Shown here: piece after piece, positions 3,882 to 30,582 of the stretch | How the letters are laid out: each line of letters begins with the position of its first letter | How positions within the stretch are numbered: the first letter of the stretch is position 1 | Assembly (NCBI GenBank): GCA_964540065.1 | Contig: CAZIKY010000001.1 | Coordinates: 14,798 to 78,797 of the forward strand | DNA: 64,000 nucleotides | Origin: Candidatus Woesearchaeota archaeon | GTDB taxonomy: Archaea > Nanobdellota > Nanobdellia > Pacearchaeales > JAHJTO01 | Direction of reading: 5' to 3' | The notes under the pieces: generated by a model | Database searches by the model: none | Seen by the model: only the letters and a program-made list of their open reading frames with translations | Told to the model about the DNA's origin: nothing | Made by a program: the position numbers and the translations under genes

Positions 3882-4781
3882 TTATTTGTAAACTTCTTTT
3901 ATTTCGCCGAGCATATAATGCCTGACTGAATTAGTTTTACTCTCCCCTTTCTTATCTAATTTATTGGGTTTTCCCTTTAATAAACCTTTCTCTTCACCGG
4001 GGACTTTCACCGACGGTGAAGGCTTAACAAAAGACAAAATTTTACTTGATCCGTTGGAGTCCATTTTCTTGGCCCCGATTACAAAATTCTTTTCATTTTG
4101 CACTTTTTTGGAAGGCTTATCATAAAGGTCTTTTATTTCTCCAGTTAATTTCTGTGAAGTCGTTTCTTTGTGGGGCTTTATCACTTTCTCAACCTTTGAG
4201 GCAATTTCCATAACCTTAGAAGGCTGAACCGAGGGCTGCTCAGATTTCTGCCTGCTTCTAAGATATTTCTCCTTTTCTTCTTGAACGATCGCAGAAACCC
4301 CTTTGTATTTGTCGGCTGCTAACCATCCTCTCCTTGGAATTGGAACTCCCTCATTCCTCTGTGAAAATGAAACGACTTGGCTCCTTTCACGAGGTTTCAT
4401 TATAGGATCCATTATAGCTGGACCGATTCCTCCAGAATGCTTGACAATCTTAAGCTCTCCAGAAGGCCCTTTTCGCAGATAGCTTCCAAGCTCCTTGTCA
4501 AATTTGCTTCTTTTCTTAAATGCGCCTAAAAGAGACAGAACTTCATTTTTAGAGCGATTTTTGACTCTCGAAATCTTATCTGAGAAAGGCTCTTCGACCC
4601 TAGTTCCGGGCATTATTCCGGAAATCTTTGAATGATTAGACCTCATAAGGTCTTTTTTAATTTCTTTATGTAATGGAGTTACATTTCTGACAACTTTTAA
4701 TTCTCTTCTAACTTCTCTTGGAATAAAATCTGCCTCCCCCTTTTTATTGGAAAAAAGTTTTCCTATAAATGAATTACTCAC
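3882..4781 (-). CDS. soluble basic protein paralogous to the cytoplasmic tail of the giant surface protein
   Basis: 299 aa, no TM. Segment LGSYLRKGPSGELKIVKHSGGIGPAIMDPIMKPRERSQVVSFSQRNEGVPIPRRGWLAADKYKG and C-terminal ...HYMLGEIKEVYK closely match residues near the C-terminus of the 6856-aa protein (...YLKKGPSGELKIVKPSGGIGPAIMDPIMKPRERSQIVSFSQRNEGVPIPRRGWFAADKYKG...EWMLGELKGVYD). DNA 4380-4470 is ~90% identical to 5880-5970. Confidence 0.7.
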   Translation of the reverse strand: MSNSFIGKLFSNKKGEADFIPREVRRELKVVRNVTPLHKEIKKDLMRSNHSKISGIMPGTRVEEPFSDKISRVKNRSKNEVLSLLGAFKKRSKFDKELGSYLRKGPSGELKIVKHSGGIGPAIMDPIMKPRERSQVVSFSQRNEGVPIPRRGWLAADKYKGVSAIVQEEKEKYLRSRQKSEQPSVQPSKVMEIASKVEKVIKPHKETTSQKLTGEIKDLYDKPSKKVQNEKNFVIGAKKMDSNGSSKILSFVKPSPSVKVPGEEKGLLKGKPNKLDKKGESKTNSVRHYMLGEIKEVYK

Positions 4782-4947: not shown

Positions 4948-5142
4948 TCATCTCACAACCCATAAATTCACCCCTGCTTTTTTCATTCTTGTGACTTTTT
5001 CATCAAGTGCGAGCTCTAAAAGATGCTTTTCTGCAGTGTTCCATGAAACGCCAAATTCCTCGGCAATCTCGCTGGTTGTCACTACTTTAACCTTTCCCAC
5101 TTTCTCTATTATTTTCTTTTTTAGTTCACTAATTTGTACCAT
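4948..5142 (-). CDS. small winged-helix DNA-binding protein (paralog 1 of 3)
   Basis: 64 aa MVQISELKKKIIEKVGKVKVVTTSEIAEEFGVSWNTAEKHLLELALDEKVTRMKKAGVNLWVVR; helix-turn-helix plus wing pattern. ~75-80% identical to the proteins at 5227..5424 and 26043..26240. Preceded by a palindrome at 5159-5176. Confidence 0.7.
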   Translation of the reverse strand: MVQISELKKKIIEKVGKVKVVTTSEIAEEFGVSWNTAEKHLLELALDEKVTRMKKAGVNLWVVR

Positions 5143-5176: not shown

Positions 5177-5226
5177 ACTATTAATATTAATATAACTATT
5201 AGCAAAACCTAAAATTCCATGCATTT

Positions 5227-5424
5227 TCATTTTACTACCCATAAATTCACCCCTGCTTTTTTCATCCTAGTAATTTTGCTATCAAGTGTAAGTTCAAGCA
5301 AATGCTTCTCTGCAGTGTTCCATGAAACCTTCAATTCTTCAGCGATTTCGCTTGTAGTGACTACTTTGGTCTTTTCAACAAGCTTCATTATTTCCTTTTT
5401 GAAATCACGGCTGTCCATTTTCAT
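5227..5424 (-). CDS. small winged-helix DNA-binding protein (paralog 2 of 3), start overlapping the stop of the giant gene
   Basis: 65 aa MKMDSRDFKKEIMKLVEKTKVVTTSEIAEELKVSWNTAEKHLLELTLDSKITRMKKAGVNLWVVK. ATG (5424-5422 on the minus strand) overlaps the TAA (5426-5424) of the 6856-aa ORF, giving TAATG. Confidence 0.7.
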   Translation of the reverse strand: MKMDSRDFKKEIMKLVEKTKVVTTSEIAEELKVSWNTAEKHLLELTLDSKITRMKKAGVNLWVVK

Positions 5425-8400
5425 TAATCATAAACTCCTTTTAGCTCTCCAAGCATCCACTCCCTTACCGCAGCAGAATTATCCCCTATGCTTTTTTTCT
5501 GAGATTCTTTTTTCTTTGATACCATTTTTACATTAGATTTAGCCGAACCGCTAAAGACCGATCTAATCCTAGTTGCATCTTTAGCCCCAATTACTGCTCT
5601 CTCGACTGGCTTGGAATAAACTGCTTTAATTTCCCCTGCAGTTTTATTAAGAATCGAAACTGGCGCAGGCAATATCTTTTCCAGTCTGAAAGCTTTGTCA
5701 ACTTTAGCTGCAAGTCCACTTATTTTTGACGGCTGCACTGAAAGCTGGATAGCCCGCTCTCTGCTCTTAAGATATCTCTCTCTTTCTTCCCGCACAAGAG
5801 AAGATATTCCCTTATACTTGTCGGCAGCAAACCATCCTCTCCTTGGAATTGGAACTCCCTCATTCCTCTGAGAGAATGAAACGATCTGGCTCCTTTCACG
5901 AGGTTTCATTATAGGATCCATTATTGCCGGACCGATTCCTCCAGAGGGCTTGACAATCTTAAGCTCTCCAGAAGGCCCTTTCTTCAGATATCTTTCAAGA
6001 TCTTTGTCAAGTTTGCTTCTGTCCTTCAAGCCATCCCACAACGAGGTGAATTCTTTCCTGATTCTGGCTCCGCTTCTTCTGAACTTTTCAGAAACCGGAT
6101 CTTCAACAAATGAAGGTTCAACTATAGGAGATAACTTAGAATCTTGCTTCTTGAAGTTAAACTTAAACTCTTTCTCAAACAAAGGAGCTTTCCTTTCAGA
6201 GATCTTTGAAGGGCTTAAAGGTTTATGAGGTTTAATCTTTATTTCTCTGTACTCTTCATTTCTTGAACTGAAGATCTTCTCCCCGATCTCGACAATAGAA
6301 GAAATTATCTGTGTCCTCTTCCTTGAATTCAGATAGCTGTTCAACTCTTTATCAAGATTATTATTTCTCGTACTTAAACTGTAAGGTACTTTTTGCTTTA
6401 CCAGAGACTTATTGCTTAGGCTCTTCTGCAGCTGTTCAAGCTCAAATTGAGATTTGGCAGAGGATAAATCAAGCCATTTTTCAGAGAATTTAGGTTTATT
6501 CTGCTCATTTTTCAAAGGAAGTTCATTAACATGGACATAAGAGCCTGAGCCCAACTGTCCTCTCTCGCCATAGAAAACCGGCCTCTTTACTCTCTCATGA
6601 TAATAATTTGTTTTAAAAGAAATAGTTCTGCTTATAGACTCTCCGAGTCTGTCGAAGTAGTTCTTGAAAGGAACATCATAGTGCTTTCTAATAACCCCGA
6701 AGATCCAGCCGTCAGTCCTTTCTAGATACCTTGTTATTACAAATTCGTCATGCTTTCTTCTTCTCCAAGCTATGATAAGCAGCAAGACTAAGAACAATAT
6801 CAATGCAGTCCACAAAATCATCTCCCAAGGAATCTCTTTCTTCTCCACTACTGGGGCAGGTGTAGGAGTCATACAGACTCCATTCTCGCAGTTCTGGCTC
6901 TTGCAGTCAGAATTAAGGTAGCATCTCTTTCCATTATCGCATCTTTCAGAGCAAGTCTTTCCTCCGCAGTCTACATCGCTTTCATCCTGGTTCAGCTTAT
7001 TATCTTTGCAGAAGCTGACTGGTGCAGCAACTTCACATTCTTCATCCAAGGCAGGCCTGTCATCAGTGGTTCCGCAATTATTCTGGTCACTGCAGAACCT
7101 GCTTCTCAATCCTCCAGAGCATGCGCTCCATTCAGTGCAGATCCAGTCTTCTTCACAAACCGGAGTCACAACAGCGCCTCCGCCACCGCCTCCTCCTCCG
7201 CCACCGGAAGGTGCAGGCGCTGCAGGAAGCACAACTGAGAAAGTTACATTCTTGCTGTCAAGATTTCCGGCACTGTCATTTGCAAATGCAATTAGGGTTG
7301 TCGAACCTTCAGGGAAGGTCACATTTACAGGAGAGGTGTAAGTGATATTTGTTCCATTGAAATTATAGAAAATAGTATTCACCCCAGATCCATTGTCCGT
7401 AGCAGACAGATTAACAAGGATAGACTGGCTGCTGTAAGTGATATTCTCCGGACTGTGTATTGTCACATTTGGTTTTATCGTATCCACTGTAAACACTCTG
7501 GTCGCATTTCCGCTGTTTCCTGCAGTATCGTTAACTGTAGCATTGAGAGTTATCGAACCTTCAGGGAAGGTTACAAAGTGTGTAGTGTTATAAACTGCAA
7601 AAGTTCCATTCCAATTATATCTTACAGTGTCAACAGTTCCATTAGGCCCATTAGTAGTGGTTAGGTTCACAAGGATTGTCGCATTATTGTATGTTTTGTT
7701 CTCAGGGCTTACAATCGTAACTGTAGGAGCAGTCACATCAACAGTAAAGGTCACAGTTGCAGATCCTAAATTGCCTACAGTATCATTAGCATAAGCCTTC
7801 AAAGTTATAGATCCTTCAGTAAAGTTAACTATTACTGGAGAGGTGTAAGTAGTGTTTGTGCCGTTCCAATCAAAGAATATCGTAGAAACTCCTGCTCCAG
7901 AATCTGTAGCGCTTATATTTACTAAAAGAGTCCGATTATTGAAAGTTGCTGTTGTAGGATGTATTATTGTAACAGTTGGTGCGGCCGAGTCTACAAAGAA
8001 CAAAATACTGCTTTCATTTGTATTTCCTGAAGTATCATTTGCAATTACAGTCAGGTTATAAGTTCCATTCTGAGGTGGCAATGTGAAAGTGGTATTGTAC
8101 TTATTGCCTGCAACGTTAGTTAAGTTAAACTCATTCACCGCATTGTCTGGATATCTTATTCTTGCGATTACATTATTAACTGCGATATTGTCCGTTACAT
8201 TTGCAGCCACTTCTATCACAGAAGATAAAGCGAAGAAGCTTCCATTCAAAGGCCTAAGATCAAAGACTACTGGCTTCGTTCCATCAGAAGCATTGAAGAA
8301 AGTTGTTTCACTGTTATTAACACTTCCACTAGAGTCATTCGCGAAGAAGCTTACATTGTATCTTCCGAGAAGCTCAGGTATTGCGAATGAAGCATTGAAC

Positions 8401-20400: not shown

Positions 20401-23400
20401 ATCTCTATTGTTGCATTCGTCAAGAAGTTAGTTCCAGCAGAAGGAATCAAACTAAAGACTAACGGACTTTCATTATCTGTTACTTCAAAGATAATTATTT
20501 CAGTGTTATTTAGGTTATTATTAGTATCGTTCGCGAGGAATCTTACCGTATAAAATCCTCCTTCTCCAGGAGCAGTAAATGAGGCGTTGAATTTATTCCC
20601 CGTAACATTTGCCAATGTCAGCAATTCTGCAGTTCCGTTAGGGAAAGTTATATTCGCAATAACTGTACTGATAACACCATTATCGGTCACATTTGCAGCA
20701 ATTTCTATCGTATCCCCAACAGTAAAGCTTGTCCCATTCAAAGGCTTTAGGCCAAATACTGCGGGCCTAACAGTATCATTTGCAATGAAGAAGGTAGTTT
20801 CAGTAGAGTTTACATTATCTGAAGTATCTGTTGCGATGAACGTGATATTGTATCTTCCCTGAGGAGTATTTGGAAGGGTGAAGCTTCTATTGTACTTGCT
20901 ATTGCCAACATTTGAAAGTGTCAGATTTTGAACTGTTCCATTAGGGAAAGTTACATTAACTGAAACAGCGGCAACTGCTCCATTATCAGTGACATTAGCA
21001 GCAATCTCAATAGTATCTGAAACATTGAATTGAGTCCCATTTACTGGTGTGACGATTATAACATTCGGGGGAGTCGCATCTCCCTGCAGCAAGAAGGTCG
21101 TGGTAGTGCTGTTTACATTATTATTGGTGTCATTAGCAATAAACGTAATGTTATATTGTCCGACCAAAGATGGCACGGTAAAGGAAGTGTTAAACTTCCC
21201 TCCGCCAATAAGGGAGCCGCTTACATTTGTCAAAGTCAAAACGTTTACAGTTCCATTTGGCAGGCTTATGTTTGCCAAAACTGTATCGATGACTCCGTTA
21301 TCAGTCACATTTGCAGCTATCTCAATAACCTGAGAAGCCATAACATTTAGGCCTTCAGGAGGGTGGACTGAAACTACTCTTGGATTTACAGTGTCTCCTG
21401 CAATGAAATTAGTTATAGTCGTAGCATTAGTGTTCCCCGTGGAATCGTTAGCAATGAAAGTTATATTATACTGACCCTGCAATTCGTTAGGAATTGTGAA
21501 GGAAACATTGAATTTGTCAGTCGAATTAAATTGACTTAAAGTCAAGACATTTACTGTGCCATTTGGCAAGGTTAAATTAACTCTCACGGTCTGCAGATCC
21601 AAATTATCCGTTACGTTAGCGGCTATTTCAACAACATCAGATACATTAAAGGATGTCCCATTTTGAGGAGATAATAGTGTAACTGAAGGATTCCTTGTAT
21701 CTCCTGCATTGAAAAATGTCGTTTCAGTGTTATTCACATTATCATCTGTATCATTGGCGAAGAAGGTCAGGTTGTATCTTCCCAAAATATTAGGTATTGT
21801 AAAGCTTGCGTTGAACTTATCTCCGACAGAATTGTTTAAGACAAGAGTGTTTACTGCCCCATCAGGATAAACAATCGTCACAGAGACAAAGGATAAGACT
21901 CCATTATCCGTTACATTAGCTGCGATCTCAATTGTATCAGTCAAACCGAAATCTGTATCTTCAACTGGAACTAAGGAGGAGACCAAAGGAATTTGCGTGT
22001 CTGCCCCTATGAATGTCGTTGTTTCAGTGCTGTTGACGTTTCCCCTAGTATCATTTGCAATTATCCTTACAGTATATTGCCCTATCAAACCAATAGGGAT
22101 TGTAAAGCTGGTATTGTACTTTGTTGTGCTTGTATTTGTCAAAGTTAAAGTCTGCACAGTTCCATTTGGAAGGGTGACATTTGCAAGTACCTGACTCACA
22201 GCTGAAAGGTCATCAGTCACATTCGCAGCTATTTCTAAAGTTTCAAGCAAATTGAATGTCGTACCGTTTGCAGGCACTAATCCGATAACTGATGGAGGAT
22301 CAAAGTCGCCGCTGAAGAAGTGAGTTTTCTCAGTGTTGTTTGTATTTCCATTGGTATCATTTGCAACAATAGTCACATTATATCTTCCGATCAAATTTGG
22401 AACCAAGAAAGAAGTGTTATACTTATCTCCTACAGCGTTAGATAATGTCAAAGTGTTTATGGCCCCATCAGGATATTGAACAAGGGCCCTTACAGTTTGA
22501 ATTACTCCATTATCCGTGACGTTTGCGGCAATTTCTATGGTAGATAGAACCTCAAAGCTTGTTCCTGCAACGGGGATCAGGTCAAATACAGAAGGTCTAA
22601 CCGTATCGTTAGCTATGAAGAAGGTTGTTTCGGTATTGTTTACATTATTATTCGTGTCATTAGCAATGAACGTGATATTGTATCTTCCTTGAGGGGTGTT
22701 TGGCAGAGTAAAAGAAGTGTTGAATCTTGTGTTATTGCTAAGAGGGCCGCTAATATTCGCCAAAGTAAGTAGCTGAGAAGTCCCATTAGGGAAAGTTATA
22801 TTGGCTAATAAAGCGCTTATGACTCCATTATCTGTAACATTGGCTGCAATCTCAATGGTGTCAGAAACATTGAATGGTGTTCCATTTGGTTTAAAGTCAA
22901 AAACTCTTGGGTTAATAGTATCTCCTACAGTAAAGTTGGTCCTTTCAGTAGTATTGAAAGAGTTGCTGGAATCGTTAGCAATGAAGGTTATATTGTAGGT
23001 TCCTTGCAGATCATTTGGTATGTTGAAGGAGGTGTTAAACTTGCCTCCAAGAGAGAGCAGTCCACTCACATTGGTCAAAGTTAGCTGTTGTACCGTTCCA
23101 TTAGGGAAAGTTATATTGGCACGGACAGCACTTACAGCTACATCATCAGTCACATTTGCAGCTATTTCAATTACGTCTGAGGTGTTGAATGAAGTGTTGT
23201 TTACCGGCCTTAAATCAAAAACACTTGGGATCGTCACGTCATTAGCAATGAAGAAAGTTGTTGTTGTAGAATTAACGTTATTGCTTGAATCGTTCGCAAC
23301 AAAAGTAACATTATATCTCCCAGTGATATTGTAAAGAGTAAAGGAATTGTTGAACTTATTAGTTGTGCTGTTATGGCTAACTAAAGCGCTCACATTATTC

Positions 23401-25994
23401 AAAGTCAAGACATTTATTGTCCCGTTAGGCAGGGTAATATTTACAAAGACTGCACCTATGACCCCGTTATCAGAAACATTTGCTGCAATTTCAATAACGC
23501 TTGCAACATTAAATTCCGTTCCATTTACAGGCTTGGCATCAAACACTGAAGGGAAAATATTGTCTACCGCTACAAAGATGATCCTTTCAGTGGAATTAAG
23601 ATTATTGTTCGAGTCGTTAGCAATAATTGTAACGTTGTAGTTTCCTTTTAGGGCATTAGGAATAGTGAAGCTTGTATTGAATTTATTATTTGGACTGCTG
23701 TGATTTGCGAGCGCGCTGACATTGTTCAATGTAAGCAATTGAACAGTTCCATTAGGAAAAGTTACATTTGCACGAACTGCACCGAGCACTCCATTATCGC
23801 TAACATTAGCTGCAATTTCAATGGTCTCTGAAACGTTGAACTGAGTTCCATTTAATGGCCTCAAACCAATTACTCTCGGCCTTATCGTATCGTTAGCGAT
23901 AAAGAAAGTAGTATTTGTTCCAATGTTATTCAAGGTATCATTCGCTATGAAAGAGATATTATATCTTCCTTGCAAACCTGAAGGAACAGTAAATGTTGTG
24001 TTAAACTTACCAGAGCCGCTAAGTGCACTGGTATTAGTCAAGGTCAGCTGCTGAACAGTTCCGTTGGGGAAAGTAACGTTTGCAAGAACCGTTTGTATAA
24101 TTAGGTCTGTAGTAACGTTCGCTGCTATCTCAATAGTGTCAGAAACATTAAACTGAACATTACTTACGGGCCTTAAATCAAAGACTCGCATATTTACTTG
24201 CTCAGTCCTCGTAATCCCAACCCTCATTTGTTTTATCTGGGCAGTCCCGCCATCAAGCGCTCTGAACCTTATCTTAATTGTATGGGCACTCGCATTCAAA
24301 GTTAGGTTTTGTATCGAAGCAAAACTAAGCCATTCTGATCCATCAAGAGGATGCATTGAGATATTGCCATAGGTAACGCCATCAACCTCAAGTACCGCCC
24401 TTATACCATTTGCTTGAGGGGCAGCGGTGGTCTGCCTTATATCTGCTGTTCCAAATATAAGATACTCTCCAGTAAATGTAGGAGTAAATACTGTGGTCAT
24501 TGCATCTTGGAGAGTAGTAGTATTTGTAGTGGACTGGATGTCACTGGTTTGATTATTTGCAAAAATGAACTGATCTTGCTGCCTTATAGCAGTTATTCTC
24601 GTCCGGTTTATTTTCCCGGTATCTCCCGAATTTGCAAAACCCTGCATAGTCAGATTATGGGGCGAAGCAGAAAGGTTCAAAGTTACGCTTGTAAAGTAAA
24701 CTTTTTTGTTGGTTGCAGCTTTTTTGGCATATGTAAAGTTGCTGTATTCTGTTCCATCTACTAAGAATCTAGCATTAGCAAGATCATTAAGTCCATCTGG
24801 AGCAAGCTCGGCAGAGGCCATTATAAGATAAGTTCCGGCAGATGGAGGAGTGAAAGTTAAAGTTTGTACATCTGCAAAAGATCCCACATTTAACGTCTGG
24901 GTAGTATCAGTAGAATTGTAGAAAACCTCATCAGATTTTAATGCAATGAGTCTTGCATTTCTTATAAGTGCTGCAACTGATCCGCTTCCAGATTTCCACT
25001 GTATTGTTGCAGTATGACTGCCAGCGCTTAAGTTTACAGTTTTATGAACTGAGAAAGATTCAAAACCTGTGGCGACAATTGGCCTGTAGATCATCTCTCC
25101 TTCATCAACTCCATCAAGAAGCAGTCTAGCAGAAACTTCGGTATTGGTTGCATCCTCTCTTATTTCTGAGCTTACGATTATTGTGTAATTGCCTGCTTCA
25201 GAGGCAGTGAAGGTCAAAACAGTTTTATTTATATAAGTCGTCGAAGTAGTTGAATTCTCTCCCACGCTTTCTCCGAACTCTCCGAAACCCGGGTCATCCG
25301 GAGTTAAAAGGAAAGTGTATTGCTGTCCAGGAACCAAGCCTGTCTTAAACAAGGTCCAATTTCCAAAGCATGTTTGGGTTGTAAAGTTCCACGCCTTACA
25401 TTTATGCAATTCTGTTCCAACTGCAGTTACGGTAACAGTTGCATTGTCAAAATCAAGCTGAGTCGGGTCTATTGCATAAACCCTTGAAAATCCATTAGTT
25501 GGAGCAACATCATCTATTCCAAGGGCAATTGATCTGCTGACATTTGAAGTCCTCACATTGTAAAGCACAATCCGATTTACTGGACCGCTTGATGGAACGA
25601 TCTCTATTCCATCAGAAGTTTCAGTTATCTGCATAGGAATTTCATTGCCTGCGCTGTCCCTTATTCTAAGCAATTCGCTCAAGGCCCTTACAGTTTCCCT
25701 CAGCTCCTCGATAGACTCTTTCAGAGATTCTGTGCTCTCCCTAAGCCCTTCAATTTCTGCGTTTGTTCTATTGCTTTCAGCAATTTGCGTAACAACTTTC
25801 CCGGTCACGGGGCTTCCAAAATAGCTGAACTCCGGATTTATGTATCCGAGGATCAACAGCGTGAGCAGGCTGGCCAAGAATGCACCGATAAGAATTGCTC
25901 CCACCAGCCTGCTTCCGCTAAGATTTTTGCCCTCTTTTTGTCCGGAATATGAATTTCTTTTTTCTCTTCTGTTATGTTTTCTGTGTCTTGACAT
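5424..25994 (-). CDS. giant membrane-anchored surface protein (6856 aa); putative glycosylated adhesin / S-layer-like protein with a cytoplasmic tail
   Basis: Uninterrupted 20.6-kb ORF. N-terminal basic segment plus hydrophobic anchor (LVGAILIGAFLASLLTLLILG), then a ~600-aa unique region. More than 50 tandem ~96-aa repeats (consensus ...PSVFDLRPVNGTxFNVSDVIEIAANVTDNGVISxVxANVTLPNGTVQxLTLTNVSGDKFNTSFTIPNxLQGxYNITFIANDTNNNVNSTETTFFIANDT...), dense in N-x-S/T sequons. A central ~515-aa Cys-containing unique region and a second repeat type near the C-terminus (VTIxSPxN.TY....LVN...TDNGSGV.TIFYN.NGTN.TYTSPV.VTFPEGS). Then a Pro/Ala stretch, G10 linker, 6-Cys module (CEEDWICTEWSACSGGLRSRFCSDQNNCGT...C...C), TM helix (ILWTALILFLVLLLIIAW, ~6764-6826), and a ~450-aa Lys-rich cytoplasmic tail. 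Confidence 0.9.
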   Translation of the reverse strand: MSRHRKHNRREKRNSYSGQKEGKNLSGSRLVGAILIGAFLASLLTLLILGYINPEFSYFGSPVTGKVVTQIAESNRTNAEIEGLRESTESLKESIEELRETVRALSELLRIRDSAGNEIPMQITETSDGIEIVPSSGPVNRIVLYNVRTSNVSRSIALGIDDVAPTNGFSRVYAIDPTQLDFDNATVTVTAVGTELHKCKAWNFTTQTCFGNWTLFKTGLVPGQQYTFLLTPDDPGFGEFGESVGENSTTSTTYINKTVLTFTASEAGNYTIIVSSEIREDATNTEVSARLLLDGVDEGEMIYRPIVATGFESFSVHKTVNLSAGSHTATIQWKSGSGSVAALIRNARLIALKSDEVFYNSTDTTQTLNVGSFADVQTLTFTPPSAGTYLIMASAELAPDGLNDLANARFLVDGTEYSNFTYAKKAATNKKVYFTSVTLNLSASPHNLTMQGFANSGDTGKINRTRITAIRQQDQFIFANNQTSDIQSTTNTTTLQDAMTTVFTPTFTGEYLIFGTADIRQTTAAPQANGIRAVLEVDGVTYGNISMHPLDGSEWLSFASIQNLTLNASAHTIKIRFRALDGGTAQIKQMRVGITRTEQVNMRVFDLRPVSNVQFNVSDTIEIAANVTTDLIIQTVLANVTFPNGTVQQLTLTNTSALSGSGKFNTTFTVPSGLQGRYNISFIANDTLNNIGTNTTFFIANDTIRPRVIGLRPLNGTQFNVSETIEIAANVSDNGVLGAVRANVTFPNGTVQLLTLNNVSALANHSSPNNKFNTSFTIPNALKGNYNVTIIANDSNNNLNSTERIIFVAVDNIFPSVFDAKPVNGTEFNVASVIEIAANVSDNGVIGAVFVNITLPNGTINVLTLNNVSALVSHNSTTNKFNNSFTLYNITGRYNVTFVANDSSNNVNSTTTTFFIANDVTIPSVFDLRPVNNTSFNTSDVIEIAANVTDDVAVSAVRANITFPNGTVQQLTLTNVSGLLSLGGKFNTSFNIPNDLQGTYNITFIANDSSNSFNTTERTNFTVGDTINPRVFDFKPNGTPFNVSDTIEIAANVTDNGVISALLANITFPNGTSQLLTLANISGPLSNNTRFNTSFTLPNTPQGRYNITFIANDTNNNVNNTETTFFIANDTVRPSVFDLIPVAGTSFEVLSTIEIAANVTDNGVIQTVRALVQYPDGAINTLTLSNAVGDKYNTSFLVPNLIGRYNVTIVANDTNGNTNNTEKTHFFSGDFDPPSVIGLVPANGTTFNLLETLEIAANVTDDLSAVSQVLANVTLPNGTVQTLTLTNTSTTKYNTSFTIPIGLIGQYTVRIIANDTRGNVNSTETTTFIGADTQIPLVSSLVPVEDTDFGLTDTIEIAANVTDNGVLSFVSVTIVYPDGAVNTLVLNNSVGDKFNASFTIPNILGRYNLTFFANDTDDNVNNTETTFFNAGDTRNPSVTLLSPQNGTSFNVSDVVEIAANVTDNLDLQTVRVNLTLPNGTVNVLTLSQFNSTDKFNVSFTIPNELQGQYNITFIANDSTGNTNATTITNFIAGDTVNPRVVSVHPPEGLNVMASQVIEIAANVTDNGVIDTVLANISLPNGTVNVLTLTNVSGSLIGGGKFNTSFTVPSLVGQYNITFIANDTNNNVNSTTTTFLLQGDATPPNVIIVTPVNGTQFNVSDTIEIAANVTDNGAVAAVSVNVTFPNGTVQNLTLSNVGNSKYNRSFTLPNTPQGRYNITFIATDTSDNVNSTETTFFIANDTVRPAVFGLKPLNGTSFTVGDTIEIAANVTDNGVISTVIANITFPNGTAELLTLANVTGNKFNASFTAPGEGGFYTVRFLANDTNNNLNNTEIIIFEVTDNESPLVFSLIPSAGTNFLTNATIEIAANITDLSSISANVTVTYPDGATITLSLVNPNGDKFNTSFTIPNIEGRYNLSYFAQDTIGNINNTETTFFIAGDAFAPLVINATPTNGTVFNVSDVVEISANVTDSDSNVSFVSANLTLPNGTVNVLTLTNVSGPLANGGKFNTSFTIPNNLQGRYNITFIANDTRNNVNSTVTTFFIANDTIRPSVASLVPPNSSAFPSLSVIEIAANVTDNGVIDKVLAKIDYPDGASNTLTLVSVGGDKFNVSFTIPSVTGRYNVTFIANDTNNNVNNTETTFFIGGDTVRPLVFDLRPVSGFNASNLSVIEISANVTDNFEINTVLANVTLPNGTINVLTLNQVTGTDKFNQSFSIPNLKGTYNVTFIANDTSNNLNSTERTNFTFDGVSNATLSTDKTEYFQGTAATAEENPNFGVKVFILFEASYVNPINSAPIVDGTCNVTSNNSNSVTTLTFNSTTGNYSGSLDNTIEFDITNYTLSCSSPSMNAASSSTVASTFWLNYIINTGNIFFGGTDNNLSSSTTWLSKVAPNSTSYVNKTFNMSISPNQTDVNGLRIFFCGSNTNVPCSFLRNFNMQGIVTMRANLSASANNVCKPKLCYHLSTSNLEDTYELCGEPSGSLTTTPTLFEQNATLDGVTIGKTNFLSMHIHCDADSSLSSTTNVSVNLFYNYSDQEVNLEIHHPEPLNVITEIIENKQESFNLTIGPDQTLNVTVNHTILLNNTSANSGRINLFQALEVLGRFGQRVIANKTRVYNSTGGFWASDNVSLMPLENLTVFTGNVINYRTEFIGGSSAINNTARVEYQNALIDNETFTLNETTVKRWRVDLETIFVQTGSIRNITVFTNYSTYLPEGDEEARFTVNFTNSSGTFDLTNDTVVNTTLKTLTFPPISASLVNFTVEATDVVAPRLSGLVPANNSSFTSSATIEIAANLTEQFSGVDSVSANITLPNGTVQVLTLTNVSGPLINGGKFNTSFTLPSGLEGTYSARFIANDTAGNVNSTETTSFNVADTTSPLVFDFRPVSNSSFNVSDTIEVAVNVTDNVAISKVLANVTLPNGTVQVLNLTNVLGDKFNTSFTLPNTPQGQYNITYIANDTANNVNSTETTFFVAGDTIKPEVFDVRPVNGSQFDVADVIEISANVTDNGVISAVVANLTLPNGTLQTLTLANVSGDKFNASFTIPDLAGRYNLTYIANDTNNNVNSSVTSFFEVNDTSAPQVSGFIPSAGTNFTSLTSIEVAANVTDNAAVSFVSATVTYPDGATVDLTLVNAAGNKYNASLSIPNIGGRYNVSFFANDTSNNINNTETTFFEVGDVFAPSIIITSPSDGALFNVSDVIEISANVSDGNSNLSAVIANVTFPNGTVQQLTLTNVSAITNHSAANKFNVSFTIPNALQGRYNITFIANDTLNNLGTNTTFFTANDTIRPSVAALVPPNGTTFGSLDVIEIAANVTDNGVISTVRAQIKYPNGATNTLTLTNVGGDKFNTSFTVPDIDGRFNVTFIANDTNNNVNNTETTFFIGGDQARPSVLDIKPVNGTAFNVSDVVEISANVTDDFAVSAVKANVTLPNGTVQVLNLTNVLGDKFNASFTIPQALQGRYNITFIANDSSNNLNSTETTFFIANDTVKPAAFGAIPAAGTSFNSSDVIEIAVNATDNGVISSVIANLTLSNGTSQLLTLTSVGGDKFNVSFTIPNTPQGQYNLTFLVNDTNNNLNSSITTNFIVGDTINPAVFGAVPANGTSFNVSDVIEIAVNATDNGVLGTVLVNATLPNGTVQQLTLTNVTGDKFNTSFTIPSTPQGQYNLTFIANDTNNNVNSSTTTTFIVGDTIRPAVFELLPTNGSSFNTSDIIEVSANVTDNGVISAVIANVTLPNGTVNVLTLSQISGTDKFNTSFTIPVLQGTYNVTIIANDTNNNVNSSEKTFFTVADTLVPAVSGVIPANGTSFNVSDTIEIGVNVTDNVAVSSVTANVTLPNGTVNVLTLSLANGSRYNVSFTIPNDLQGQYNVTFIANDSNNNVNSTVVTVFTVGDTINPAVFDSRPINGSSFNIADIVEIAANITDNGVISAAIVNVTLPNGTVQQLTLTNATGDKFNVSFTVPNLAGRYNLTYIANDTNNNVNSSVTSFFNANDTLAPRVFSLIPVNGSHFAATSVIEIAANVTDNVAVSTVSVTVTYPDGAFEEFALVNAGGDKYNASFTIPDFGGRYNVSFFANDSSNNVNNTERTFFNVSDIFGPSIDIVSPNAGATFNVSDVVEIAANISDLSSNISAVLANVTFPNGTVQQLTLTNVSAITNHSAANKFNVSFTIPNTPQGRYNLTFIANDTKNNVNSSVTTFFIANDTIKPSVFGFIPPNDTTFPTLVSIEIATNVTDNGVVDTVKAQLKYPNGATNNLVLTNVGGDKYNTSFSIPNIAGRYNVTFIANDTNNNVNNTETTFFIGGDTTKPLVVGLVPVAGTQFNASDTVELAANVTDNFGVSSVRANVTFPNGTVQQLNLSLATGSKYNASFTLPNTPQGRYNITFIANDTSNNVNSTETTFFISNDTVRPAVFGAVPANGTSFNASDVIEIAINATDNGVISSAIANITFSNGTSQLVTLASVVGDKFNSSFTIPNTPQGQYNLTFLVNDTNGNLNSTTITTFIVGDTINPAVSGLLPVNGSVFNTSQVVEIAANVTDNGVIDAVLANVTLPNGTVNVLTLSQVGSTPKFNNSFIVPSGIQGTYNITYIANDTNNNVNSTARTSFIGGDSEKPSVSGLIPVANSTFSVAQNIEIAANVTDNIAVSDVRVNLTLPNGTLQVLTLINVSGPLANGGKFNTSFSIPNLPGTYNITFTANDTTNNVNSTSTTFFVLANEVNPNVTIVSPASGNFTNATLLVNITAVDDNAVENVLFFNGTANQTYASPVFVTFPQGTTVMRVYANDTFGNLNDTESVTIFIDSVPPSVTGVASTKASINQTQETTIVATVSDATTSVDKVIAQFTLPNGTVQNQTMALSGATYTTIFATSSSNVPGVYNVTIIANDTFGNVNSSEKTNFTVNDITRPQVTINSPSAGNFTNATILVNITATDNFQVSTILFFNGTANQTYTSPVFVTFPEGTTVVSVFVNDTSGNVNNPENVTINVDTTPLSVFDLRPVNGTQFNVSDVVEISANVTNSGQINSVKANLTLPNGTVQVLTLTNTTGDKFNTSFIIPNALQGRYNLTFVANDSFGNVNGTGTTFFIANDTAKPAVFGFIPSNGSSFNVSDVIEIAVNATDNGVLGTVLVNVTLPNGTVQQLTLTNVTGDKFNTSFTIPSTPQGQYNLTFIVNDTNNNVNVTTTSFIVGDTIKPSVFGLVPTNGSGFNLSQTIEIAANATDNDGPVTVIVNITLPNGTVQQLTLTNVTGNKFNTSFVVPSSLIGRYNITYIANDTNNNANSTSTTFFNALDVINPNVTGLVPLNGSTFNLGSTIEIAANVTDNVAVSSVLATITYPDGATNTLTLNNTSGNKFNASFSVPSDLQGRYNVTIVANDTSNNLNNTEKTHFIVSELNNPSVTITSPTNGSTFRVNDTVGVTALVTDSTGVDTVLVRITFPNGSTTDLQTSNISASYNTTFSDLDQKGTYLVRIIANDTLNNVNNATTVIFTRVVEGNRTFDVVNPAGDSINNAQVVILNSSGILTVTVNLTNQTISSLIVSGYSETSPYALIKIANRTNDSSLFAQTYGIDPSGLNFTSINLTAVANGTVLYKCENFTISTTTCNDGYSFVRNLTPGETYTITINNATDPGFSEQNPTNGTPDQGSYDPFGEGHSEVVNTFAATQANDQVYFAVRRNNGAGAQNDLNTHLNLTYNLSGVLSGASASDITNMTFLLEHCLNDDSTGAFTCGGSAPGGVAENSTAIELFNWTAGAFQQVGTYNGSIINEGNATTSLGGSFVDFVNSTTKLVQIRYKINVTITTNGNDAAFGADFAQLTVTFGSVIPKVENLRPVANSSFNTSNVIEIAANVTTVFANVSSVRANVTFPNGTVQQLTLTNVSGPATSSGKFNASFAIPELLGRYNVSFFANDSSGSVNNSETTFFNASDGTKPVVFDLRPLNGSFFALSSVIEVAANVTDNIAVNNVIARIRYPDNAVNEFNLTNVAGNKYNTTFTLPPQNGTYNLTVIANDTSGNTNESSILFFVDSAAPTVTIIHPTTATFNNRTLLVNISATDSGAGVSTIFFDWNGTNTTYTSPVIVNFTEGSITLKAYANDTVGNLGSATVTFTVDVTAPTVTIVSPENKTYNNATILVNLTTTNGPNGTVDTVRYNWNGTFAVYNTTHFVTFPEGSITLNATVNDTAGNSGNATRVFTVDTIKPNVTIHSPENITYSSQSILVNLSATDNGSGVNTIFYNFNGTNITYTSPVNVTFPEGSTTLIAFANDSAGNLDSKNVTFSVVLPAAPAPSGGGGGGGGGGAVVTPVCEEDWICTEWSACSGGLRSRFCSDQNNCGTTDDRPALDEECEVAAPVSFCKDNKLNQDESDVDCGGKTCSERCDNGKRCYLNSDCKSQNCENGVCMTPTPAPVVEKKEIPWEMILWTALILFLVLLLIIAWRRRKHDEFVITRYLERTDGWIFGVIRKHYDVPFKNYFDRLGESISRTISFKTNYYHERVKRPVFYGERGQLGSGSYVHVNELPLKNEQNKPKFSEKWLDLSSAKSQFELEQLQKSLSNKSLVKQKVPYSLSTRNNNLDKELNSYLNSRKRTQIISSIVEIGEKIFSSRNEEYREIKIKPHKPLSPSKISERKAPLFEKEFKFNFKKQDSKLSPIVEPSFVEDPVSEKFRRSGARIRKEFTSLWDGLKDRSKLDKDLERYLKKGPSGELKIVKPSGGIGPAIMDPIMKPRERSQIVSFSQRNEGVPIPRRGWFAADKYKGISSLVREERERYLKSRERAIQLSVQPSKISGLAAKVDKAFRLEKILPAPVSILNKTAGEIKAVYSKPVERAVIGAKDATRIRSVFSGSAKSNVKMVSKKKESQKKSIGDNSAAVREWMLGELKGVYD
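7175..7206 (-). repeat. GC-rich GGN codon run encoding a Gly10 linker
   Basis: gcctccgccaccgcctcctcctccgccaccgg in an AT-rich gene encodes ...PAPSGGGGGGGGGGAVV.... An equivalent tract occurs at 49748-49782 in gene 49231..50634. Confidence 0.9.
7990..17700 (-). repeat. tandem array 2 of ~288-bp coding repeats (about 34 Ig-like domain repeats) inside the giant gene
   Basis: Periodic protein repeats, and periodic antisense ORFs in the ORF track of the form ...VSFAMKVTLYLP.... Some copies are near-identical at the DNA level (e.g. 10560-10780 vs 15040-15260). Boundaries approximate. Confidence 0.8.
19250..24190 (-). repeat. tandem array 1 of ~288-bp coding repeats (about 17 Ig-like domain repeats) inside the giant gene
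   Basis: Same repeat family as array 2, separated from it by a ~1.5-kb unique region (about 17700-19250). Boundaries approximate. Confidence 0.75.
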
Positions 25995-26042: not shown

Positions 26043-26240
26043 TTACTTTACAACCCAGAGATTCACCCCCGCTTTTTTCATTCTAACAATTTTTTGGTCG
26101 AGAGTTAGCTCAAGAAGGTGCTTTTCTGCAGTGTTCCAAGAAATCTTCAGTTCTTCAGCGATCTCGCTAGTAGTGACTACCTTAGTTTTCTCTACTAGCT
26201 TTATGATCTCCTTCTTGAGATCGATCCCTCTCTCTACCAC
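26043..26240 (-). CDS. small winged-helix DNA-binding protein (paralog 3 of 3), 48 bp upstream of the giant gene
   Basis: 65 aa MVERGIDLKKEIIKLVEKTKVVTTSEIAEELKISWNTAEKHLLELTLDQKIVRMKKAGVNLWVVK. Confidence 0.7.
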   Translation of the reverse strand: MVERGIDLKKEIIKLVEKTKVVTTSEIAEELKISWNTAEKHLLELTLDQKIVRMKKAGVNLWVVK

Positions 26241-29542: not shown

Positions 29543-29585
29543 ATAAATAAAATTTAAGCAGTGTTTTTTAAAGTTTTAGGCCGAT

Positions 29586-30116: not shown

Positions 30117-30117
30117 A

Positions 30118-30495: not shown

Positions 30496-30582
30496 ATTAC
30501 ACCCTTTTGATTATAAATTTAAATAAATTCTCCTGCTATTTAAATTCTTCCAGACTCTGCCATTTTAGGTAAGAGAAGAGAA

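Follow-up and report, generated by a model that had tools for sequence, protein, structure and literature searches.

The window, by which we mean the whole 64,000-nt stretch of DNA that was analysed, carries one giant open reading frame on the minus strand, with small genes on both sides in the same orientation. Archaeal markers are present in the window (L15e, TFIIE-alpha and RuBisCO), and no tRNA, rRNA or Rfam family was found in its 64 kb. The NCBIfam search also returned one "MiiA motif" match, for which the literature offered no interpretation. The features are listed below in the direction of transcription; residue numbers (aa) refer to the giant protein.

26043..26240, minus strand: small winged-HTH (wHTH) gene, copy 0, 65 aa; 48 nt lie between its end and the ATG of the giant
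5424..25994, minus strand: giant ORF, 6,856 aa, 731 kDa; predicted ectodomain pI 4.27, tail pI 10.0
25839..25994, minus strand, aa 1-52: N-terminal basic stretch (pI 11.7) followed by a hydrophobic segment of ~22 residues
25275..25637, minus strand, aa 120-240: N-module with 2 Cys, YAIDPT..NF..ATVTV..G..LYKC..WNF..Q.C..W..PGQ.Y.F.L.P.DPGF.E
24207..25274, minus strand, aa 241-596: beta-rich region with PPC-like (pre-peptidase C-terminal) matches (PF04151, E 3.4e-6, 2 stretches)
19254..24206, minus strand, aa 597-2247: array 1, Ig-like type-A repeats A1-A16
17715..19253, minus strand, aa 2248-2760: central unique domain, 513 aa, 8 conserved Cys
11889..17714, minus strand, aa 2761-4702: array 2, type-A repeats A17-A35 (n=19)
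11085..11897, minus strand, aa 4700-4970: B1, A36 (divergent), B2
9582..11090, minus strand, aa 4969-5471: type-A repeats A37-A41
8607..9581, minus strand, aa 5472-5796: second unique region, 4 Cys, beginning with N-module copy 2
7983..8606, minus strand, aa 5797-6004: type-A repeats A42-A43
7221..7991, minus strand, aa 6002-6258: tandem type-B repeats B3-B5
6840..7220, minus strand: membrane-proximal stalk (linker, poly-Gly run, 14-Cys region)
6759..6827, minus strand: predicted C-terminal transmembrane (TM) helix WEMILWTALILFLVLLLIIAW (aa 6390-6410), then RRRK
5427..6758, minus strand: predicted cytoplasmic tail, ~444 aa, K/S/E/R-rich, net charge +37, pI 10
5227..5418, minus strand: small wHTH gene, copy 1, 63 aa, starting 5 nt past the giant's stop codon
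4948..5142, minus strand: small wHTH gene, copy 2, 64 aa, downstream of the giant
3882..4781, minus strand: stand-alone tail paralog, 299 aa, 49% identity to the tail, ending ...RHYMLGEIKEVYK
3055..3876, minus strand: archaeal MinD-like deviant-Walker-A ATPase, 273 aa, starting 5 nt past the paralog's stop

The giant ORF is a real and intact gene. It spans 20.6 kb, starts with ATG and encodes 6,856 aa with zero internal stops, as an earlier note on this DNA had described, and the ~0.7 MDa given there is matched by a calculated mass of 731 kDa. The same note had raised the concern that the frame could be a pseudogene or an assembly collapse of repeats. We observed that the repeats of the giant share a mean nucleotide identity of 58% (maximum 87%), that the longest exact nucleotide repeat is shorter than 80 nt and that repeat-versus-repeat dN/dS is ~0.21 with dS of ~2. 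These values indicate that the repeats are old and under purifying selection, and therefore that the gene results neither from assembly collapse nor from pseudogenization. Two observations could still be read as signs of mis-assembled repeats or of a decaying pseudogene left open by chance: the gene is spanned by a single assembly, since for the same run (SRR5011273) the Logan assembly is broken within the neighboring, duplicated tail paralog and thus provides no independent assembly of the giant, and frame breaks occur inside the giants of related loci L005 and L066. However, 6,856 sense codons without a stop, repeats too diverged for collapse, a dN/dS of about 0.2, a coherent domain order from signal to TM helix to tail, and dozens of genomes with homologous architectures speak against an artefact, which is already largely refuted and which we consider extremely improbable.

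The giant contains 43 type-A repeats with a period of 100-110 aa (model length 103), grouped along the chain as 16, 19, 1, 5 and 2. More than 50 repeats of ~96 aa in two tandem arrays had initially been described: the tandem repeats and the arrays of 16 and 19 were recovered, but the count and the period were not, and the groups of one, five and two come in addition. Array 2 contains a 9-unit super-repeat (A19-A24 are similar to A28-A33). BLASTP self-comparison identified exactly five type-B repeats of 86-89 aa each. This is in line with the three to six ~90-aa repeats previously noticed near the C-terminus, except that two of them flank A36 (aa 4700-4970). Repeats B3-B5 match the NCBIfam OmpL47-type domain and Pfam Big_13. 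The Pfam family Big_7 (PF17957) scored 122, 220 and 121 bits on the giant (cut-off 24.1), with 5+12+6 reported stretches and a best E-value of 3e-66 per segment, and Big_3_3 and Big_13 also match the repeats. The AF2 model of one type-A repeat, a check proposed in the earlier note, is confident (pLDDT 95.6) and presents 8 strands; Foldseek searches of the PDB with this model returned Ig-like domains (TM 0.65-0.74), including the HPI S-layer protein of D. radiodurans (8cka). The predicted structure shows that type-A repeats adopt an Ig-like beta-sandwich fold, the fold that had first been proposed from the sequence. Cys residues are absent from all repeats.

All 28 Cys of the giant fall within the predicted ectodomain, and the modules that bear them each contain an even number (2, 8, 4 and 14); the tail is Cys-free. 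The N-module, whose second copy lies at aa ~5540-5612, has no Pfam match, and a profile search against PDB sequences was empty. The beta-rich region at aa 241-596 has a homolog, P0028. BLASTP self-comparison did not confirm the three suspected internal repeats in aa 250-596, and the single line of evidence for a repeated beta-sandwich there is the PPC-like Pfam matches. The central domain, predicted to be all-beta and marked by the motif Y(V/I)YNSTGxLWASDNxSAGAP, corresponds closely to the ~515-aa unique region with paired Cys that had been pointed out before. Full-length homologs exist in three other woesearchaeal giants (46, 37 and 32% identity) with 8/8 Cys conserved. Neither Pfam nor a profile search against PDB sequences returned a relative, and its AF2 model, also proposed as a check, reached a pLDDT of 36 from a 5-sequence alignment, too poor for a fold search, so that no fold was obtained. 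The region is a conserved module, but its mid-chain position, the lack of a Pfam or PDB relative and this model leave the suggested ligand-binding head no more than a candidate role. The second unique region has homologs in L028 (55% identity) and L012 (48%). In the stalk, the first part of the Cys region reads CxxxWxCxxWSxCS and the second C.D...NQDESDVDCGG..C..C, a module common to many archaeal and bacterial proteins; the Cys-rich stalk had no Pfam hit and gave chance matches only in the PDB search.

We searched for the type-A repeat in other genomes and found 213 matching stretches in 72 loci, almost all of them in Woesearchaeota/Nanoarchaeota/DPANN MAGs. The best repeat identity among GTDB representatives was 67%. 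Several MAGs contribute two loci each, which correspond to paralogous large proteins, and the unique modules of the giant recur in other giants as shuffled Cys-containing modules. All 72 loci are annotated as hypothetical in the reference MAGs. In genomes of the Woesearchaeota type this is the main family of large surface proteins, and the locus gives one complete member of it.

The N-terminus is predicted to be a Sec signal peptide or signal anchor (aa 1-52; hydrophobic segment at aa ~30-52), and its layout, basic then hydrophobic, is common to most family members. The predicted ectodomain of ~6,330 aa is acidic (pI 4.27). The tail beyond the TM helix ends in ...REWMLGELKGVYD, and over its last ~260 aa it duplicates the 299-aa protein encoded downstream. 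The N-terminal hydrophobic segment, the TM helix followed by RRRK, the difference in pI (4.27 vs 10.0) and the placement of Cys and sequons fit a topology with the ectodomain outside, a single C-terminal TM helix and the basic tail inside. The protein may be anchored at both ends, in which case it would be looped instead of extending as a free fibre. Pfam and NCBIfam searches identified no domain in the tail, neither VirB4/TraG nor any other enzymatic domain. We rejected the possibility of a PGF-CTERM/archaeosortase substrate, which would carry a PGF motif with its TM helix at the very C-terminal end, because a 444-aa tail follows the TM helix and the NCBIfam search gave no PGF-CTERM hit. The N-terminal signal or anchor, the 14-Cys stalk, the C-terminal TM helix and the 444-aa tail were all missing from the earlier note.

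N-x-S/T sequons are strongly enriched in the giant: 508 of the 511 lie in the ectodomain and 3 outside, whereas composition-preserving shuffles gave an expectation of 179±11. The reverse motif S/T-x-N occurs 196 times. Type-A repeats carry 9.2 sequons each on average, at 11 recurrent positions, five of which are kept in >90% of the repeats with S and T interchanging. In the one modelled repeat, 8/10 sequon Asn lie in beta-strands and 6/8 main strands bear one, which agrees with the initial impression of sequons in nearly every strand-like segment. The relatives of the giant present 3.4-8.4 sequons per 100 aa. This enrichment, extreme, conserved and restricted to the ectodomain, supports the view already expressed that the sequon load fits heavy N-glycosylation, and we infer from the sequence that the ectodomain is heavily N-glycosylated. 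No AglB gene was found in the 64-kb window. The ~nine conserved sequons per repeat, on exposed beta-strand faces, would most likely be used by the archaeal oligosaccharyltransferase AglB, whose N-glycans would coat the fibre. Such a load predicts a fibre with more glycan than protein.

We further analyzed the neighboring genes. Gaps of 5 nt separate the giant from wHTH copy 1 and the tail paralog from the MinD gene. The paralog and the MinD gene have GTG starts and, with the giant's tail, form an operon-like row. The tail copy fused in the giant is under purifying selection (core dN 0.10, dS 0.54), and the paralog has a very weak ParB-family match (TIGR00180, E 0.004, below cut-off). The wHTH proteins gave weak HTH family matches only. 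An HMM search found them in the closest lineage only, plus a weak match upstream of the L025 giant, indicating that the wHTH gene is not a general feature of the giant family. The best family of the ATPase is TIGR01969 (minD_arch; E 2.7e-47), with a score of 161.1 bits that falls below the NCBIfam curated cut-off of 201.75, and it therefore represents a distinct MinD subfamily; the match to ParA_partition is much weaker (E 5.9e-16). Its best PDB matches are the MinD proteins of P. furiosus (1g3q, E 2.5e-32), P. horikoshii and A. fulgidus. Five orthologs carry the deviant Walker A motif (KGGxGK[ST], including the signature lysine) without any variation, as IKGGVGKTT, and the orthologs share a conserved basic amphipathic C-terminal segment (LLSKIKGLF, TKVKDFF, GKLKQFF, WKRFLEKF), a candidate membrane-targeting helix, followed by 10-25 more residues.

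The genomic association of the tail with this ATPase, absent from the earlier note, is the least ordinary feature of the locus. A query made of stalk, TM helix and tail was swamped by poly-Gly and Cys-rich words and returned Cys-repeat proteins only, and the tail alone was used instead. An exhaustive search of 1.84 billion representatives found the tail only in the giant itself, in the adjacent paralog and in two proteins of one related lineage, where the gene order giant - wHTH - paralog - MinD is conserved. At three further loci (L017, L015 and L037) the giant's own tail (708, 514 and 410 aa, respectively) abuts or nearly abuts the MinD gene, and the wHTH gene is absent from these junctions. 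Across n=7 loci, the tail of a large surface protein or a stand-alone tail paralog, ending in ΦLxxLKxΦY, abuts a member of the MinD subfamily. A regular expression for this C-terminal motif matched 12/41 C-termini versus 0.4% of controls; it was written after seeing the data and is exploratory, and we replaced it by a PSSM trained on six C-termini and tested on independent loci. The PSSM picked L084 and L077, two independent MinD-anchored metagenome loci in which a different TM-anchored surface protein ends in the motif of the giant's tail, with scores above 99.7% of 1,591 control C-termini. This test is strong for these two loci only and does not convincingly cover small soluble partners. In many loci of the MinD subfamily, the protein encoded upstream is small and soluble and bears a loose motif only, and the overall enrichment of the motif upstream of the subfamily is modest (P = 0.03; Mann-Whitney test). 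A MinD gene lies downstream in only 3/~47 type-A-repeat loci with a visible C-terminus, and the link is therefore confined to a subfamily. Within that subfamily, gene order and C-terminal sequences show that tail and MinD gene are linked.

On balance, we lean towards interpreting the giant as a membrane-anchored, heavily N-glycosylated surface fibre of a DPANN archaeon of the Woesearchaeota/Nanoarchaeota type, probably an adhesin, whose placement or inheritance is controlled by MinD. The N-terminal signal or anchor would export the ectodomain, and the single C-terminal TM helix would hold it in the membrane, with the disulfide-rich stalk before it. The ectodomain would form a chain of roughly 55-60 beta-sandwich modules: the Ig-like repeats (43 of type A and five of type B), the PPC-like domains, both N-modules, the central domain with its 8 Cys, and the second unique domain. 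Assuming ~4 nm per Ig-like module, the fibre would be roughly 200 nm long, about one cell width. Candidate binding sites would be the N-terminal region, the central domain and the second unique domain; Pfam and NCBIfam searches recognised no known ligand-binding domain in the giant. By analogy and from the literature, its most likely job would be to attach the archaeon to a surface or to another cell, be it a partner or a host. The earlier note mentioned that giant surface proteins of small-genome archaea are proposed host-interaction factors, and the literature does make this proposal for giant surface proteins of DPANN archaea (PMC6642349, PMC10266531, PMC6792436). In archaea, MinD4 positions archaella and chemosensory arrays and requires a membrane-targeting sequence (10.1101/2020.04.03.021790). 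By analogy with MinD4, FlhG and ParC, an ATP-bound, membrane-associated MinD dimer would recognise the tail and the soluble paralog and would thereby control the membrane site, the copy number or the inheritance of the adhesin at division. The flanking small wHTH proteins would serve as local transcription regulators. More tentatively, it is possible, though we would not expect it, that a DPANN MinD subfamily recognises a short C-terminal motif (ΦΦxxΦK-x-Φ-Y/F) on giant-adhesin tails, with the soluble tail copy as competitor or adaptor, and so places, counts or partitions a host-attachment fibre. If true, these ultra-small cells would have a dedicated system that governs the polarity or inheritance of one giant glycoprotein, and the recognition motif would be joined in cis to the cargo.

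Other interpretations account for part of these observations. The giant could be a passive envelope component (a glycocalyx, a sheath or an S-layer-associated spacer) in which the unique modules serve assembly rather than ligand binding. The density of glycan sites, extreme and uniform along the chain, would be expected of such a component, as would the S-layer Ig-like domain 8cka among the Foldseek matches, the several paralogous large proteins per genome and the lack of any recognised ligand-binding domain. However, S-layer lattice proteins are usually far smaller and without long cytoplasmic tails, the shuffling of conserved non-repeat Cys modules among giants is the usual pattern of adhesins (extender plus binding domains), and a dedicated cytoplasmic tail with an ATPase linkage speaks for regulated placement. 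We consider a passive role unlikely.

The MinD cassette could also be independent of the giant: DNA segregation or another positioning task would fall to the wHTH protein, the ATPase and the basic 299-aa protein, and the tail copy would be an accidental fusion or duplication. A small wHTH gene followed by one for a basic, adaptor-like protein and one for a Walker ATPase is an order reminiscent of tripartite partition cassettes of archaea such as AspA-ParB-ParA of pNOB8, where a small wHTH protein, a ParB-like adaptor and a ParA ATPase share one operon; SegAB likewise acts in DNA segregation. The very weak ParB-family match of the paralog points the same way, and many loci of the MinD subfamily have small soluble upstream partners with no giant nearby. 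Yet the ATPase is MinD-like rather than ParA-like, the wHTH gene is missing at the L017, L015 and L037 junctions, and purifying selection acts on the fused tail copy. The motif is also carried by TM-anchored surface proteins encoded immediately before MinD at no fewer than five other loci (L017, L015, L037, L084 and L077), and its recurrence with different ectodomains or tails makes an accidental fusion unlikely. Overall, an independent cassette appears rather unlikely. A secretion or invasion device of the SPEARE type, delivering effectors to the host through or along the fibre, would explain the shared logic of a DPANN giant whose ectodomain of Ig-like arrays is followed by a C-terminal TM helix and a cytoplasmic part, with an ATPase gene next to it (PMC10266531), but the tail lacks VirB4/TraG or any other enzymatic domain, the neighboring ATPase is MinD-like and not VirB4, and no protease or laminin-G type domain was found in the giant, which makes this very improbable.

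DPANN depend on cell contact, and attachment outside Nanohaloarchaeota is almost unknown; the locus brings a domain map and a confident repeat fold for woesearchaeal giants. The giant surface protein as such belongs to an already known type, and the MinD-coupled tail appears to be new. Should the MinD link prove spurious, the giant would still be a well-described representative, though an ordinary one, of a class already known.

Among the closest known proteins are the SPEARE of Nanohaloarchaeota, such as SVXNc_0300 (9,409 aa) and BNXNv_0298 (8,880 aa), which are proposed to act in host interaction (PMC6642349, PMC10266531). In these nanohaloarchaeal giants too, a huge ectodomain anchored by a TM helix goes together with an ATPase in the cytoplasm (PMC10266531). 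Like them, our giant is a DPANN protein of >5,000 aa that has an N-terminal export signal, long Ig-like or fibronectin-like arrays (Ig-like here) and a C-terminal TM anchor; part of the chain is cytoplasmic, and an ATPase gene lies just downstream. SPEARE contain a VirB4/TraG ATPase domain on the cytoplasmic side, a second VirB4 ATPase is encoded downstream, and they have been proposed to be secretion devices (PMC10266531). In contrast, the giant has a basic, non-enzymatic tail that terminates in a short motif, accompanied by a separate MinD-like ATPase and a soluble tail paralog. The sequon load of the giant is also far above that of SPEARE. We rejected SPEARE membership because the VirB4/TraG domain is missing from the tail and the downstream ATPase is MinD-like.

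Salmonella SiiE, Marinomonas MpIBP and Pseudomonas LapA are giant repeat adhesins with Ig-like extender arrays. Staphylococcal Ebh/Embp and a 7,651-aa adhesin of Mobiluncus are likewise giant Ig-like repeat adhesins (PMC10619420, PMC9302970). Bacterial giant adhesins resemble the giant in that dozens of tandem Ig-like domains form an extender and a few non-repeat modules form binding sites, no other protein in the respective proteome is as large, and Big_7, Big_3_3 and Big_13 match the repeats of the giant. Unlike the giant, they leave the cell through T1SS or sortase pathways and stay attached to the outer membrane or wall; they are stiffened by Ca2+ or internal cross-links, are not known to be N-glycosylated at such density, and are devoid of a transmembrane helix or cytoplasmic tail. 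A T1SS/RTX-type adhesin, which would have a T1SS signal at the C-terminus, RTX repeats and a retention module at the N-terminus, was rejected: the C-terminus is a TM helix with a 444-aa tail, no RTX/hemolysin-type Pfam domain was found in the giant, and the organism is archaeal.

Archaeal S-layer glycoproteins and the halomucin of Haloquadratum are also surface-exposed proteins modified by AglB at N-x-S/T. The S-layer proteins, much smaller than the giant, assemble into 2-D lattices. With 9,159 aa, halomucin illustrates that archaea can make proteins of ~9,000 aa (Bolhuis 2006, cited in PMC10266531); it is secreted and mucin-like, whereas the giant is predicted to be a TM-anchored Ig-repeat fibre. 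Neither archaeal S-layer glycoproteins nor halomucin are known to be coupled to a MinD ATPase.

Finally, the neighboring ATPase shares with MinD4 and MinD2 of Haloferax volcanii its archaeal MinD affinity and the deviant Walker A motif, and its amphipathic segment near the C-terminus is a candidate for membrane targeting. What archaeal MinDs position are machines of the envelope, namely archaella and chemosensory arrays, and not the divisome (10.1101/2020.04.03.021790; PMC11588486), and no comparable partner motif or cargo is described for MinD4 or MinD2 in these studies. Unlike for MinD4 and MinD2, the proposed cargo here is the tail of a giant adhesin, with the partner encoded in cis. If the link is true, the cargo range of archaeal MinDs would extend from motility and chemotaxis machines to adhesins.

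The open reading frame at 5424..25994 (-) begins with ATG and runs through 6,856 codons to its only stop, which is terminal, as the earlier note had proposed; the computed mass of the product, hereafter the giant, is 731 kDa, in agreement with the ~0.7 MDa claimed. Its G+C content (~39%) is the same as that of the remainder of the window. The type-A repeats, one of the two Ig-like repeat kinds of the giant, present mean identities of 54% (amino acid) and 58% (nucleotide). The nearest pair reaches 87% nucleotide identity. Exact nucleotide repeats within the coding sequence extend to between 60 and 79 nt at most. Pairwise dN/dS between these repeats is about 0.21, with dS about 2 and synonymous sites near saturation. 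Repeat divergence and dN/dS contradict the concern that the giant is a pseudogene or a product of assembly collapse, and the type-A repeats are ancient duplicates under purifying selection. A super-repeat of nine units in array 2, where A19-A24 resemble A28-A33, records one later block duplication. The giant is spanned by one assembly only: in the Logan assembly of the same run, the sequence is broken within an adjacent duplicated segment. We regard it as practically certain that the giant is a real gene. Two antisense ORFs at this locus, 8083-9015 (+) (310 aa) and 5219-5536 (+) (105 aa), had no family matches and are most likely by-products of opposite-strand repeat composition.

An HMM built on the recurring IEIAANVTD anchor (model length 103 positions) identified 43 type-A repeats in units of 100-110 aa, and a second HMM identified five type-B repeats of 86-89 aa. 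The initial count of more than 50 repeats of ~96 aa is thereby revised to 43 + 5 repeats of ~103 and ~87 aa, while the second repeat kind near the C-terminus (expected as three to six copies of ~90 aa) was recovered. The type-A repeats correspond to Big_7 in Pfam, with overlapping Big_3_3 and DUF4625, and the type-B repeats match an OmpL47-type domain in NCBIfam. NCBIfam NF053582 'MiiA motif-containing surface protein' also matches the repeats over short stretches, at aa ~1878-1891 and elsewhere (35.5 bits vs a cut-off of 24). Structure prediction of one type-A repeat by AlphaFold2, using the other 40 repeats as alignment, bore out the Ig-like assignment with eight strands (pLDDT 95.6). The model resembles varied Ig-like domains of the PDB (TM 0.65-0.74), among them that of an S-layer protein and several Ig domains appended to enzymes; the fold is a generic E-set Ig-like sandwich.

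Modules of the giant, from N- to C-terminus
N-terminus: 29 aa, very basic, then a hydrophobic segment of ~22 residues and a short coiled-coil-like stretch
aa 120-240: N-module, two Cys
between N-module and array 1: beta-rich region with PPC-domain matches
aa 597-2247: array 1, 16 type-A repeats
aa 2248-2760: central 8-Cys domain
aa 2761-4702: array 2, 19 type-A repeats
aa 4700-4970: two type-B repeats, with one type-A repeat (aa 4784-4886) between them
aa 4969-5471: five type-A repeats
next: second unique region, 325 aa, 4 Cys
aa 5797-6004: two type-A repeats
aa 6002-6258: three type-B repeats in tandem
next: poly-Gly linker, then 14-Cys stalk
aa 6390-6410: single transmembrane helix, RRRK directly after
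C-terminus: tail, 444 aa, pI 10.0, net charge +37

The N-terminal hydrophobic segment is predicted to be either a signal peptide or a signal anchor, and the N-module has a second copy at aa ~5540-5612 (E 4e-14). The ectodomain has a pI of 4.27 and contains all 28 Cys, with an even count in each module. The giant is very probably a surface fibre held by its C-terminal transmembrane helix.

Of the 511 N-x-S/T sequons in the giant, 508 fall in the ectodomain; composition-preserving shuffles yield 179±11, and the reverse motif was counted 196 times. Each type-A repeat carries 6-12 sequons (9.2 on average), which recur at 11 positions of the alignment. Five of the 11 are retained in >90% of the repeats, with Ser and Thr interchanging and a variable middle residue. 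Eight of the 10 sequon Asn of the modelled repeat lie in strands, and relatives in other genomes present 3.4-8.4 sequons per 100 aa. These patterns provide strong indirect evidence of selection on N-glycosylation sites, and the giant is likely N-glycosylated. No AglB was found within the 64-kb window; to our knowledge, this enzyme is near-universal across Archaea. Taken together, the sequence shows a gene under selection whose exported product is an acidic chain of beta modules, Ig-like and other, saturated with sequons, with a disulfide-capable stalk, one transmembrane helix and a basic cytoplasmic tail.

The unique centre with paired Cys, first put at ~515 aa, was located at nt 17715-19253 (513 aa, 8 Cys). 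It has no Pfam family and no match in a PDB profile search, and its AlphaFold2 model is of low confidence (pLDDT 36). Its relatives are few among 5.8 billion proteins, and all come from 'Nanoarchaeota' or unnamed metagenomes. Three other giants have full-length homologs (loci L005, L026 and L066; 46%, 37% and 32% identity), all of which keep the eight Cys and the motif YVYNSTGxLWASDNxSAGAP and are directly followed by type-A repeats. In L005 (~8951-9122) and L066 (~6425-6539), the giant is split after or around this domain into two overlapping ORFs in different frames; an error in sequencing, a genuine frameshift or a programmed one could each account for this. Homologs of the second unique region occur in two loci (L028, 55%; L012, 48% identity), and the N-module was found in >25 loci.

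Scanning GTDB representative genomes with the repeat alignment yielded 72 loci with 213 matching stretches. Almost all come from Woesearchaeota, Nanoarchaeota, Pacearchaeota or Aenigmatarchaeota MAGs, several of which contain two loci each. We infer that hits labelled 'uncultured Methanosarcinales' represent mislabelled bins. The shortest ORFs have about 750 aa and the longest at least 5,902 aa; an N-terminal hydrophobic segment is present in most of them and a C-terminal transmembrane helix, with tails of 5-708 aa, in many. The HMM made from the giant detects 1-8 type-A repeats in relatives versus 43 in the giant, and the long arrays therefore represent a lineage-specific expansion. Sequence comparison places the giant in a large DPANN family with shuffled modules. 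The window carries archaeal markers (L15e, TFIIE-alpha, form-III-type RuBisCO and RIO kinase), and GTDB matches to the giant's repeats reach at most 67% identity; the source is therefore a DPANN species without a GTDB representative, an assignment based on where homologs occur.

The tail and its neighbours are encoded as follows.

Genes flanking the giant
26043-26240 (-): winged-HTH gene, ends 48 nt before the giant's ATG
5227-5418 (-): winged-HTH gene, begins 5 nt after the giant's stop
4948-5142 (-): winged-HTH gene
3882-4781 (-): tail paralog, 299 aa
3055-3876 (-): MinD-like ATPase, 273 aa, begins 5 nt past the paralog stop

The three winged-HTH paralogs (63-65 aa) bracket the giant, the two downstream copies (63-64 aa) lying between it and the paralog. 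Their family matches are weak (DeoR/Lrs14-like). One homolog occurs at the same place in L002, a related metagenome contig, and a weak one directly upstream of the L025 giant.

An exhaustive phmmer search of 1.84 billion representatives with the tail returned four matches: the giant itself, the adjacent paralog and two proteins of one related lineage. The paralog is 49% identical to the last ~260 residues of the tail. A 91-aa core presents dN 0.10 and dS 0.54 with saturated flanks, which points to later homogenisation plus constraint. The deviant-Walker-A ATPase has archaeal MinD TIGR01969 as its top family (E 2.7e-47, under the family cut-off) and Pyrococcus and Archaeoglobus MinD as its top solved relatives. 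L002 keeps the order partial giant, winged-HTH, tail-like protein and MinD (84% identity), its partial giant having type-A repeats, the same Cys stalk, a transmembrane helix and a shorter tail. In three GTDB loci, it is the giant itself whose long tail extends to the MinD gene. This tail has 708 aa in L017, where the giant measures at least 5,902 aa and the gap is 46 nt; it has 514 aa in L015, with a gap of 10 nt, and 410 aa in L037, with two genes inserted. One motif is common to all these C-termini (WMLGELKGVYD, YMLGEIKEVYK, WMVSELKEVYK, YLLKKLKGAYK, RRLQQLKNIYK, DTLERLKRYFK).

As an independent test, metagenomes were scanned with the MinD alignment as seed, which yielded about 45 loci of this MinD subfamily (39-61% identity). 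A PSSM trained solely on the six C-termini picked L084 and L077, each of which outscores 99.7% of 1,591 control ORF C-termini. L084 is a 1,482-aa surface protein of different domain content (CarboxypepD_reg, MG2), with a transmembrane helix and a 122-aa tail that ends MLAQLKGVYE; L077 has a transmembrane helix, and its tail of 111 aa ends ILNDLKKVYKIE. Many other loci of the subfamily have small soluble upstream proteins with a looser I-I-x-x-I-K-E-like ending, which we did not count as confirmed. In L104, L112 and L115, a conserved protein of ~105-130 aa (…FY.S.G.SAGSL.E.L.KLK…HHV…NDFA.WI…GD..LGRRV.KLK…, ending K-x-I-I-x-x-I-K-E/D) lies immediately upstream of MinD and overlaps its start; it may be a further partner family.

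The adjacency of motif-bearing tails and one MinD subfamily is conserved. The link is limited to a subfamily: three of the ~47 type-A loci that could be evaluated have it, as do the window, L002, L084 and L077. It could also be explained by a separate positioning or segregation cassette that has more than once come to lie beside surface-protein genes and fused with them. Functional coupling of the tail to MinD, by analogy with H. volcanii MinD4, bacterial FlhG and ParC, has in our judgement even chances. MinD4 needs its MTS and governs the placing of archaella and chemosensory arrays (10.1101/2020.04.03.021790; PMC11588486). At their C-termini, the MinD orthologs have in common a basic amphipathic segment whose resemblance to the membrane-targeting sequence of MinD is suggestive only. 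Under functional coupling, an ATP-bound, membrane-associated MinD dimer would engage the tail motif, the soluble paralog would act as adaptor or competitor, and the two would jointly control the placement, copy number or inheritance of the fibre. The winged-HTH proteins are probably local regulators. The fibre, with about 55-60 modules of roughly 4 nm, would extend roughly 200 nm; AglB would put dense N-glycans on it, and its non-repeat modules would bind a partner cell or surface. We lean slightly towards an adhesion role for the giant.

Other loci in and near the window were also annotated.

26407-27524 (+): HEPN / nucleotidyltransferase pair (toxin-antitoxin-type module), divergent, just upstream of the giant locus
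28832-32091 (-): KaiC-like ATPase (PF06745), second small KaiC-like ORF, CheY-like response regulator and histidine kinase in a row, between the giant and pilus-like loci
32088-40026 (-): locus resembling those of archaeal type IV pili, 6-14 kb upstream of the giant
43296-44618 (-): RuBisCO large-subunit homolog, both Pfam domains (E 4.5e-76)
54634-63966 (-): second giant ORF, 3,110 aa, of a quite different kind

The pilus-like locus encodes a PorA-like (PF11271) membrane protein, two T2SSF/TadC-like proteins, a T2SSE/FlaI-like ATPase and several small ORFs with class-III-signal-like N-termini, and may form one surface toolkit with the giant. The RuBisCO homolog is typical of the nucleotide-salvage form that DPANN genomes contain. 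The 3,110-aa ORF contains dozens of repeats with G-N-V-G-I-G-T-(T/A)-S-P, a Peptidase_S74 intramolecular-chaperone domain (aa 2808-2860), also present in phage tail fibres and endosialidases, and an acidic proline-rich C-terminal region; its product is probably a trimeric surface fibre that cleaves itself. Past the window's left end, L156 of the same genome contains a large ORF (5870-10861, at least 1,664 aa, truncated at the contig end) about 5 kb past the RIO kinase and eIF genes. With the two giants of the window, at least three very large proteins are therefore encoded in about 75 kb of genome.

DPANN archaea were already known to have giant surface proteins, and the giant adds one member. 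For Huberarchaea, 'large surface proteins, some Cys-rich' are reported (PMC6792436). The nanohaloarchaeal SPEARE-type proteins (5,000-9,400 aa) combine Ig-like arrays and a transmembrane helix with a VirB4/TraG ATPase domain in the cytoplasm, and another ATPase is encoded downstream (PMC6642349, PMC10266531). The giant shares this design logic but lacks the defining VirB4 feature, and we therefore rejected its membership in SPEARE. In the literature searched, we found no description of a module combining a cis-encoded tail motif, a soluble paralog and MinD. Relative to bacterial extender-type adhesins (SiiE, MpIBP, Ebh), the giant would work similarly, but export, anchoring and glycosylation differ.
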